A model generated the notes under the pieces. That model made no database searches, was not told where the DNA came from, and saw only the letters and a list, made by a program, of their open reading frames with translations. From Escherichia coli (GTDB lineage Bacteria; Pseudomonadota; Gammaproteobacteria; Enterobacterales; Enterobacteriaceae), in the NCBI RefSeq assembly GCF_024502345.1, contig NZ_JALDNN010000001.1: DNA of 64,000 nucleotides; one strand, given 5' to 3'. Every line of letters starts with the position of its first letter. The stretch's first letter is position 1. The translations under genes were made by a program, and so were the position numbers. This document shows positions 29,302 to 31,671 of this stretch, piece after piece.

Positions 29302-29994
29302 CTAGTGATAACCACGCGCGGTCATAAAATCCGTAATCGCTTTTTCTGCATCAACTAACACCTGTTCCAGTGGCTGATTGGCGTCGATATCAACCAGTTG
29401 TGCACCACCAAAGGTTAACTGTGGCGTTATGGCTATCTTTCTTGCCAGCGATTCCCTTTTGTGGTCAGGCTTACGCGCGCAGGCCACGTCTAGATCGACA
29501 TTGAGTTTGATGACCAGATCAGGCTTATGGCTCGCCATCCAGTGAAACGCTTTACGTTCCTGGCTTGCCAGCCATGAGACAAAACGACCACCTTCAACGT
29601 TAGGTGGGAACACCGTACCATCGTAAGCGCCAGGAATTTGGTCCTGAGGATAACGGTCGGTTAGAACAATTAACCCGCGACGACGACAGGCAAGCATATG
29701 ACGAAAGCGCAGTAAGCGACGGGCGACAAACGCTGTAATTACCAGCGCCGGAACTGGTCCTGGCAATTTTTTTGCTGTTTTCACCTGATTTCGTTCAATT
29801 GTTTTATGTAAGGATTTTCCCATCAACGGTAATTTTGTCACTGCACGACCGACATTTCCGGCTTGTTTTCCTAAATGAACTCTTTCGGCAGCACCATATT
29901 TTTCGACAACGGTAATGAGATGTTCACACACCGTTGACTTGCCTGAACCATCGCTACCAATAACGGCAATTAATGGAGGTGTTATTGACTGCAT
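29302..29994 (-). CDS. yghT: P-loop NTP-binding protein YghT (kinase-like; Walker [15 protein letters not shown] motif)
   Basis: 230-aa ORF; paralog of yghS and yghR. Confidence 0.8.
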
Positions 29995-30182
29995 GAATAT
30001 ATCCTTAAATTTAAATATCCATCCAAAATATTTATTTGGTTAATATGTTTTTATGAAAGCGTAATTCAGGTCAATGTCACAATTAACCATTGTCACAATA
30101 AGGTTGAATGGATATTCTGAGCACGGACCACGTAATATTCAATACATTATTTACTGCCGGGTTTTTCGTGAATCAACGTAAT

Positions 30183-30881
30183 ATGTCAATAATTAATTCC
30201 ACGCCAGTGCGTGTTATTGCCATTGTAGGATGTGATGGTTCAGGTAAATCGACCCTCACGGCAAGCCTGGTAAATGAACTGGCAGCAAGAATGCCAACAG
30301 AACGCATTTATCTCGGGCAATCGTCCGGGCGAATTGGCGAATGGATTTCACAGCTCCCTGTTATTGGCGCACCTTTTGGGCGTTATCTGCGAAGTAAAGC
30401 GGCACATGTGCACGAAAAGCCCTCAACACCGCCTGGCAATATTACTGCGCTGGTTATCTATCTGCTTTCCTGCTGGCGGGCGTACAAGTTTCGCAAAATG
30501 TTGTGTAGAAGCCAGCAAGGCCATCTGCTCATCACCGACCGCTACCCGCAGGTTGAAGTGCCGGGTTTTCGCTTTGATGGCCCGCAATTGGCAAAAACCA
30601 CGGGCGGTAACGGTTGGATAAAAATGTTAAGGCAGCGCGAGTTGAAGCTGTACCAATGGATGGCGTCTTATTTACCCGTATTGTTGATTCGTCTTGGCAT
30701 TGATGAACAAACCGCGTTTGCGCGTAAACCTGACCACCAACTGGCAGCGTTACAGGAAAAAATCGCCGTTACGCCGCAACTGACATTCAATGGCGCAAAG
30801 ATCCTTGAACTGGATGGTCGGCAACCAGCCGATGAAATTATGCAAGCGTCACTACGCGCAATTCACGCCGCGCTTTCCTGA
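30183..30881 (+). CDS. yghS: P-loop NTP-binding protein YghS (kinase-like)
   Basis: Walker A GCDGSGKST, DRYPQ; start chosen at MSIINSTPVRV. Confidence 0.75.
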   Translation: MSIINSTPVRVIAIVGCDGSGKSTLTASLVNELAARMPTERIYLGQSSGRIGEWISQLPVIGAPFGRYLRSKAAHVHEKPSTPPGNITALVIYLLSCWRAYKFRKMLCRSQQGHLLITDRYPQVEVPGFRFDGPQLAKTTGGNGWIKMLRQRELKLYQWMASYLPVLLIRLGIDEQTAFARKPDHQLAALQEKIAVTPQLTFNGAKILELDGRQPADEIMQASLRAIHAALS

Positions 30882-30912
30882 TCACCAAAATGGATAGGGG
30901 ATGATTTAACGA

Positions 30913-31671
30913 ATGGATGCACTACAAACACAAACTGTTATTAGTACAACCGCGCCGCAGCCCAACTACATTCCGGGGCTGATTGCGGTGGTCGGGTGTG
31001 ATGGCACCGGTAAATCCACACTGACCACCGACCTGGTGAAATCGCTGCAACAACACTGGCAAACCGAGCGCCGCTATTTGGGGCTGCTCTCGGGCGAAGA
31101 CGGCGACAAAATAAAACGATTGCCGTTGGTTGGCGTCTGGCTGGAACGGCGACTGGCGGCCAAATCCTCGAAAACCCAAAGCATGAAAACCAAATCTCCG
31201 GCGCTATGGGCGGCGGTGATTATGTACTGCTTCTCGCTGCGAAGAATGGCGAATCTACGCAAGGTTCAGCGACTGGCGCAAAGTGGCGTTCTGGTGGTCA
31301 GCGATCGCTTCCCGCAGGCTGAAATTTCGGGCTTTTATTATGATGGACCGGGGATTGGCGTCGAACGTGCGACCGGGAAAATAAGCATGTTTCTGGCGCA
31401 GCGCGAACGGCGTTTATACCAACAAATGGCGCAATATCGCCCGGAATTAATTATTCGCCTGGGCATTGATATTGAGACTGCCATCTCCCGCAAGCCTGAC
31501 CATGACTATGCCGAGCTGCAGGACAAAATCGGTGTTATGTCGACGATTGGCTATAACGGCACAAAAATTCTTGAGATTGATTCCAGAGCGCCCTACAGCG
31601 AAGTGCTGGAACAGGCACAGAAGGCGGTTTCTCTGGTTGCCATCGTTTCTGACCGCCGAAGTTTAACTTAA
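30913..31671 (+). CDS. yghR: P-loop NTP-binding protein YghR (kinase-like)
   Basis: 252-aa ORF, Walker A GCDGTGKST, DRFPQ. Confidence 0.8.
   Translation: MDALQTQTVISTTAPQPNYIPGLIAVVGCDGTGKSTLTTDLVKSLQQHWQTERRYLGLLSGEDGDKIKRLPLVGVWLERRLAAKSSKTQSMKTKSPALWAAVIMYCFSLRRMANLRKVQRLAQSGVLVVSDRFPQAEISGFYYDGPGIGVERATGKISMFLAQRERRLYQQMAQYRPELIIRLGIDIETAISRKPDHDYAELQDKIGVMSTIGYNGTKILEIDSRAPYSEVLEQAQKAVSLVAIVSDRRSLT

Follow-up and report, generated by a model that had tools for sequence, protein, structure and literature searches.

What do three adjacent kinase-like genes contribute to a bacterial sphingolipid locus? The question is raised by a 64,000-nucleotide stretch of Escherichia coli DNA (contig NZ_JALDNN010000001.1; hereafter the window), in which yghT, yghS, and yghR stand beside the flippase gene yghQ, an unannotated gene, and the spt operon for sphingoid-base and ceramide synthesis. 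All four ygh genes are long-standing function-unknown genes of E. coli, and the three kinase-like ones are named here as candidate head-group enzymes. The reading favored in this study, to which we give about an even chance, is that YghT, YghS, and YghR may be kinases of the sphingolipid head group.

The trio comprises yghT (29302-29994, minus strand; 230 residues), which forms a divergent transcription unit of its own, and the co-directional yghS (30168-30881, plus strand; 237 residues from the RefSeq GTG start) and yghR (30913-31671, plus strand; 252 residues), separated by 31 nucleotides. Alternative ATG starts for yghS lie at 30108 (the first ATG, giving 257 residues) and 30183. The three proteins are true paralogs by sequence comparison, with a similarity far beyond chance: pairwise BLASTP identities are 37% for YghT/YghS (E = 1.6e-53), 34% for YghT/YghR (E = 3e-47), and 44% for YghS/YghR (E = 4e-63). 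Common to all three are a Walker A motif, G[SC]DG[ST]GKST (GxDGxGKST; one copy reads GCDGTGKST), a DR[YF]PQ motif (DRYPQ from residue 113 in YghT and 124 in YghS, DRFPQ from residue 131 in YghR), and RKPDH (from residues 174, 186, and 193, respectively). A search for an LSGGQ-like signature ([LYF]SGG[QE]) found none in any of the three proteins. A preliminary description of this DNA had reported three P-loop paralogs in this arrangement, the first two motifs, the lack of LSGGQ, and the position beside a flippase and the spt operon, all of which are borne out in the window; its suggestion of a thymidylate kinase (TMPK)-like fold rather than that of an ATP-binding cassette (ABC) ATPase is likewise upheld by structure prediction and by profile similarity to solved TMPKs. 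All three kinases are very basic (isoelectric points 9.6-9.9; 14-20 conserved Arg/Lys positions each), and ratios of nonsynonymous to synonymous substitution rates of 0.04-0.15 against other Escherichia species indicate strong purifying selection on their genes.

YghR was modeled with AlphaFold2 from an alignment of 67 diverse family members (profile A3), yielding a confident structure (pLDDT [predicted local distance difference test], 90.3; predicted template-modeling score, pTM, 0.86) with a TMPK-like three-dimensional P-loop fold. Its top structural matches include 2plr, a homolog of the catalytic subunit of the polyphosphate kinase PPK3, and no ABC ATPase is among the matches. Profile A3 also aligns to solved TMPKs (E = 3.9e-13 for 2wwf and 8.5e-11 for 5xbh), placing YghR Arg111 on the Arg conserved in the 'LLFSANRW' helix of TMPKs, a residue that we take to bind the TMP phosphate. 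This alignment spans positions 11-71, 93-128, and 169-237 only. Positions 129-168, which follow the DRX strand as a PQ...DGP loop where TMPKs have their nucleoside site, find no counterpart in TMPKs, and some 25 extra residues, estimated against typical TMPK lengths, are presumably inserted between the helix of the P-loop and the strand that carries DRX. Fold and profile thus place all three proteins within the TMPK superfamily, whereas the unmatched nucleoside segment sets them apart from dTMP kinases; nor are they ABC ATPases.

Single-sequence searches of family databases tell little by comparison, no score reaching its threshold. The best NCBIfam match is TIGR00041 (dTMP kinase), at 24.6, 22.5, and 32.0 bits for YghT, YghS, and YghR against a curated cut-off of 83.25. 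Pfam, run on YghT alone, returned nothing significant (Thymidylate_kin, E = 0.43) and no DAGK domain, and a PF02223 match is precomputed for many YghR orthologs. Compared with Tmk (TIGR00041/PF02223), the trio falls below the family cut-offs, has an additional Gly-rich segment (YLGxGxGxxG...LPxxG), carries the PQ...DGP loop at the nucleoside-binding place, and occurs as three paralogs within a lipid locus. The 'dTMP kinase' names given to yghT and yghS in RefSeq are unsupported and look like over-annotation. An identity as a defense system was also rejected, as PADLOC scores show only P-loop-level noise. Searched by profile, 1.8 billion representative proteins yielded 2333 clusters of the wider family at E ≤ 1e-3.

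Relatives of YghR were collected at one genome per species and at least 49% identity with a query alignment (A1) narrower than A3, giving 80 loci. These come from Enterobacterales, Rhodanobacteraceae, Carnimonas, Methylotenera, Nitrotoga, Sulfuritalea, Gallionellaceae, Sphingobium, Sphingopyxis, a Myxococcales metagenome-assembled genome (MAG), and other MAGs. In a neighbor-joining tree, the YghT orthologs of all sampled taxa form one clade and the YghS orthologs another; YghR orthologs are paraphyletic, and monophyly is claimed for YghT and YghS only. Mean identity is 0.58-0.61 inside ortholog groups and 0.35-0.43 across them. Together, the ortholog clades and these identities argue that the triplication is older than the spread of the cassette. 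Conservation is about 100% for GxDGxGKST, Asp131-Arg132, Pro134-Gln135, Asp144, Glu165, Arg193-Lys194-Pro-Asp-His197, and Lys205, both across the T, S, and R groups and among more distant, fused relatives, so that P-loop, DRX motif, and basic lid are kept in all three ortholog groups. Since these catalytic-type residues are invariant in every group, none of the three proteins looks like an inactive or regulatory copy.

The genomic surroundings point toward lipids. Window proteins were compared by tblastn with the 80 loci, of which the 57 of at least 18 kb form a long-locus subset. Within this subset, yghS is present in 55 loci, yghT in 52, the flippase gene in 49, and the gene for the unannotated protein, called CHAD-like below, in 45; spt lies within 10 kb in 46. 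The order and orientation of these blocks vary by lineage (Enterobacterales, Rhodanobacteraceae, Methylotenera, Nitrotoga, Sulfuritalea, Carnimonas, and MAGs), and the trio is kept as a unit in Enterobacterales, Rhodanobacteraceae, Methylotenera/Nitrotoga, Sphingomonadales, and others. Co-occurrence despite rearranged order is a classical signature of functional coupling, and suggests it here. Comparative evidence thereby takes the place of the impression that the preliminary description had drawn from one genome. The module thus consists of yghT, divergent from yghS-yghR-yghQ and the CHAD-like gene, and is genetically tied to genes of sphingolipid synthesis and export.

In non-enteric loci, genes of further lipid enzymes are interspersed with the trio, and several of these enzyme types work on lipid-bound phosphate. 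A gene resembling LmtA, the membrane methyltransferase that O-methylates the lipid A 1-phosphate, is found in 12 of them; in Methylotenera (locus L054, 8204-8944, minus strand; 118 bits) it sits between yghT and yghS, and it also occurs in Lysobacterales and Myxococcales MAG loci. PAP2 phosphatases like LpxE, LpxF, or SepP are present in 8-15 non-enteric loci, OlsC/LpxO-like lipid hydroxylases in 25 loci, and LptA-like or fused LptFG genes in some non-enteric loci. The E. coli window contains no LmtA-like, PAP2, or OlsC/LpxO-like gene. The Myxococcales MAG locus L073 encodes an LptF-LptG fusion of 760 residues (2669-4951, plus strand) beside the kinase genes. Two further loci, L040 (titled Martelella alba) and L023 (a MAG labeled Pseudomonas sp.), carry cassettes about 70% identical to the enterobacterial one in the same gene order, which suggests contamination, mislabeling, or recent transfer.

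The unannotated gene downstream of yghQ (33066-33890, plus strand; its start overlaps the yghQ stop) encodes a 274-residue protein without a Pfam or NCBIfam family. Its motifs YKYIRARYKHLRFA, FHDVRKI, and INGLMGDxHD appear CHAD-like by eye. The AlphaFold model is all-helical (pLDDT 93.8) and, as in CHAD, forms a pair of four-helix bundles in which His and basic residues are conserved. Foldseek gave 6qv5 as the sole full-length match (probability 0.96; template-modeling scores 0.51/0.49), with E-values that are not significant. Confirmation at the sequence level failed: Pfam CHAD (PF05235) was reached at E = 0.089 in one of 20 family members, and hhalign against YgiF was negative. From its modeled fold, the protein is nonetheless likely to be CHAD-like. 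CHAD domains bind polyphosphate specifically and are found with polyphosphate kinases and phosphatases (bioRxiv 10.1101/567040).

How the module might work can be proposed from these elements. Each kinase would bind Mg-ATP on its P-loop and, on the cytoplasmic side of the inner membrane, pass the γ-phosphate to a sphingolipid's polar head. By analogy with TMPKs, the DRX arginine and the arginine of the helix, each conserved in the trio, may hold the phosphate acceptor. The three enzymes would probably act in sequence, hydroxyl first and phosphate next: one would phosphorylate the ceramide hydroxyl, and the remaining enzymes the existing phosphate, to give a di- or oligophosphate head group. 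TMPK-fold enzymes typically transfer the ATP γ-phosphate to a phosphate acceptor, among deoxynucleoside kinases with this fold the acceptor is a hydroxyl, and PST-type flippases usually carry lipid-diphosphate-linked cargo. The phosphate chain would be a ligand of the CHAD-like protein; after the kinase steps, YghQ would flip the phosphorylated lipid, and the permease pair LptF2G2 would then extract it for delivery to the outer membrane.

No head-group enzyme of the CpgA-D type known from Caulobacter is among the genes identified in the E. coli-type locus, in which no search with Cpg sequences was made, and another head-group chemistry is therefore needed. The ceramide kinase CpgB of Caulobacter crescentus is also encoded in a bacterial sphingolipid locus and phosphorylates ceramide, starting an anionic head group. 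In contrast to YghR, which has a P-loop fold, CpgB is of the diacylglycerol (DAG)-kinase/LCB5 type, has a GGDG motif, and is not related to P-loop kinases; homology of the trio to CpgB was accordingly rejected. The closest functional analogy to the proposed role would be LpxK, the lipid A 4'-kinase, which also has a P-loop and whose membrane-lipid substrate is phosphorylated on the cytoplasmic side, ahead of its flipping and Lpt-mediated export.

Several observations weigh against a sphingolipid head-group role. None of the three kinases has a transmembrane segment, and the partner is assigned to CHAD by fold only, the PF05235, hhalign, and Foldseek statistics given above all being negative or not significant. 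Literature on yghR, yghS, and yghT is confined to knockout or expression lists (for example, a 3.1-fold induction of yghS upon SlyA overexpression), and the papers searched gave neither a biochemical nor a genetic result on any of the three. Although activity has been demonstrated for the pathway's first enzymes (PMC9386255), the searchable literature yielded no account of the product lipid or of any E. coli sphingolipid head group. Bacteroidota-type polysaccharide loci with related kinase domains have no sphingolipid genes or CHAD nearby, and the ancestral substrate of the kinase family need not be a sphingolipid. Finally, of 5426 complete E. coli genomes, 4784 carry the yghRST region and 4196 (about three quarters) the stretch running from the CHAD-like gene to spt; some 590 genomes, including K-12, have yghRST without the spt segment. 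This could be a sign of independent function, and also fits a recent IS5-associated deletion.

Comparison with PPK3 bears on two alternatives. PPK3 of Sulfolobus acidocaldarius (Saci_2019/Saci_2020) is a polyphosphate kinase formed by two adjacent dTMP-kinase-like paralogs, whose genes lie in one operon together with ppx, sixA, and the gene of a CHAD protein; catalysis falls to one subunit, while the other, which has lost the DRX arginine, is regulatory (PMC12995831, 2026). The Ygh trio likewise consists of adjacent TMPK-superfamily paralogs encoded next to a protein that is likely to be CHAD-like, an arrangement whose likeness to PPK3 is striking as an analogy. Membership fails on the arginine and on sequence, and the neighbors identified point the same way. 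There are three Ygh paralogs, all with the catalytic DRX arginine (Arg132, 100% in the T, S, and R groups); the locus is embedded in sphingolipid, flippase, and Lpt genes, with no ppx or sixA among the neighbors identified, though the loci were not searched specifically for them; and by sequence the Ygh profile is no closer to PPK3 than to canonical TMPKs.

It is tempting to speculate, as a special case of the head-group reading, that a true lipid-anchored oligo- or polyphosphate is made, a PPK3-like machine extending the chain on ceramide (ceramide-P, -PP, -PPP, or longer), though we consider this doubtful. Holding the chain would then fall to the CHAD-like protein, flipping to YghQ, and export to the outer membrane to LptF2G2; in some lineages the chain might be trimmed by the PAP2 phosphatases and capped by the LmtA-like methyltransferase. 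No lipid class of ceramide-oligo- or polyphosphates was found in the searchable literature.

A PPK3-like hetero-oligomer acting with the CHAD-like protein on free inorganic polyphosphate, which it would make from ATP or use to make ATP, would draw on the same gene arrangement and is similarly unlikely. The DRX arginine lost in the PPK3 regulatory subunit is kept in all three Ygh paralogs, and canonical TMPKs outscore 2plr by sequence (52.9 versus 30.5 bits). The neighbors identified are the flippase, spt, lptFG, PAP2, and LmtA-like genes and not polyphosphate genes, although ppx, sixA, and pst were not specifically queried and many open reading frames are unlabeled. Only nine of the 80 loci have pitB, a phosphate transporter gene, next to the trio. 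Moreover, E. coli has PPK1. Most organisms with PPK3 lack both PPK1 and PPK2 (PMC12995831).

Alternatively, the trio could phosphorylate soluble head-group precursors, such as a small acid or sugar, or a nucleoside monophosphate, that another enzyme later attaches to ceramide; we regard this as improbable to about the same degree. Characterized members of the fold all use soluble substrates, the trio proteins are without membrane segments, and head-group synthesis in Caulobacter employs nucleotide-activated phosphoglycerate. The family itself offers a further argument: many relatives of about 500 residues carry an N-terminal NTP_transf_5 domain of nucleotidyltransferase fold, and the pairing of kinase and nucleotidyltransferase is typical of activation routes, for example in HldE. 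A few others are fused to a Wzx flippase (e.g., P0250) or a GT4 glycosyltransferase. However, the E. coli-type locus has neither an obvious attaching transferase nor a nucleotidyltransferase, three conserved and active-looking paralogs are many for one precursor, and the nucleoside-binding segment of TMPKs is not alignable in the trio.

The NTP_transf_5-kinase fusions lie in Wzx/Wzy polysaccharide loci and share the kinase domain of the trio (E down to 1e-46). Unlike the trio, they have the N-terminal nucleotidyltransferase-fold domain and no CHAD-like or sphingolipid genes nearby. They are always beside a Wzx flippase gene and a second P-loop paralog of 240-250 residues, which follows the fusion gene (L002, 8733-9482; L087, 11512-12264; L089, 2965-3690) and is very divergent, D-Q replacing D-R (LLDQG). 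This pair recalls, by analogy, the catalytic and regulatory subunits of PPK3. Since the fusion relatives also adjoin Wzx, the kinase-flippase association is older than the association with sphingolipids.

Much less probable is a role as non-kinase NTPases that energize or gate transport as partners of YghQ or of LptF2G2, in the latter case replacing an LptB-type subunit. The locus does have the permease genes lptF2G2 and no ABC ATPase gene, and one relative is fused to a flippase, but MOP flippases do not run on ATP, both the DRX motif and the lid motif are of phosphotransferase type, and ABC features are lacking in both the sequences and the structural matches. In addition, lptF2 lies within 10 kb in only 35 of the 80 loci, and Caulobacter LptF2G2 works with the housekeeping LptB (bioRxiv 10.64898/2026.04.12.717747). 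That the trio are genuine additional thymidylate kinases, as the RefSeq names, the TIGR00041 best match, and the PF02223 records would have it, is scarcely credible given 22-32 bits against the cut-off, the Pfam result for YghT, the estimated extra residues before the DRX strand and the unaligned segment after it, the lipid-related context, and the lack of dTMP kinase activity in the operon-encoded paralogs of Sulfolobus (PMC12995831).

K-12 carries only a remnant of the locus. In MG1655 (L086), IS5 (record 3130146-3131340) lies between a truncated yghQ (355 residues) and yghO, and the CHAD-like gene, the ytfJ-like gene, lptF2G2, spt, acpR, cerR, and aasR are missing, leaving yghRST orphaned. 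This probably explains why no function was found for yghQRST. The gene names, a TMPK-like database label, and the E. coli sphingolipid locus were already known, and the searchable literature holds no statement on YghRST function, on its coupling to spt, or on the CHAD-like nature of the neighboring open reading frame. The present analysis predicts phosphate-based head-group chemistry, names a CHAD-like partner, and shows the module in many environmental Proteobacteria, making both the head group of the enterobacterial sphingolipid and the role of four y-genes testable. An oligophosphate head group, if real, would represent a new class of anionic outer-membrane lipid, and could bear on cationic-peptide resistance, as in Caulobacter, and on polyphosphate biology. 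The trio would be a case of TMPK-superfamily kinases recruited to another role, as in PPK3.

The window is a chromosome segment of the non-K-12 type and, over 3 kb, matches several complete genomes at 99.7% identity. From yghS to lptG2, the genes yghS-yghR-yghQ, the 274-residue open reading frame, the YtfJ-family gene, lptF2, and lptG2 share one strand as a putative operon, with gaps of at most 45 nucleotides or overlaps. The yghQ product (31717-33066, plus strand; 449 residues) is a Wzx/PST-type MOP flippase (Polysacc_synt, 1e-8; Polysacc_synt_3, 1e-7; NCBIfam MOP flippase). The YtfJ-family protein (33899-34462, plus strand; TIGR01626, 213 bits) has a signal-peptide-like N-terminal segment, and its gene occurs in 39 of the 80 loci, all with Enterobacterales titles except L040. 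The lipopolysaccharide export permease paralogs lptF2 (34493-35563, plus strand) and lptG2 (35560-36639, plus strand) score above the cut-offs of TIGR04407 and TIGR04408, respectively; in Caulobacter, sphingolipid transport depends on the homologs of this pair (bioRxiv 10.64898/2026.04.12.717747). A strong terminator-like hairpin (36637-36671; 16-bp stem, 10 GC pairs) separates lptG2 from the convergent operon of spt, acpR, cerR/epi, and aasR (36674-40726, minus strand; NF047599, 599 bits for spt), named also after the RefSeq annotation of an almost identical strain. Spt, AcpR, and AasR of E. coli BL21 have been shown biochemically to make 3-oxo-sphinganine (PMC9386255). Beyond the operon lies yghO (41130-42271, plus strand), a homolog of the acyl-CoA N-acyltransferase gene ('aca'); yghO/ECD_02850 has been assigned as the N-acyltransferase and is one of two genes listed as required for dihydroceramide synthesis (PMC9386255). 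Promoter-like matches in the region are no commoner than in shuffled sequence, and no promoter was assigned.

Two frameshifts distinguish the window from the nearly identical strain L001: a one-nucleotide insertion in cerR at 38936 (GGGCAAGTAC versus GGGCAGTAC in L001) and a one-nucleotide deletion in yghO near 42161 (GATCGAGCGC versus GATCGATGCGC). Ceramide synthesis may be lost in the window strain, unless the two shifts are sequencing errors. On the other side of the trio, pitB (27754-29253, plus strand) ends 48 nucleotides from the end of yghT, the two being separated by a terminator-like hairpin (29263-29291). Because it adjoins the trio in so few loci, all from Escherichia, Hafnia, Citrobacter, and Pseudocitrobacter, the adjacency of pitB is probably coincidental.

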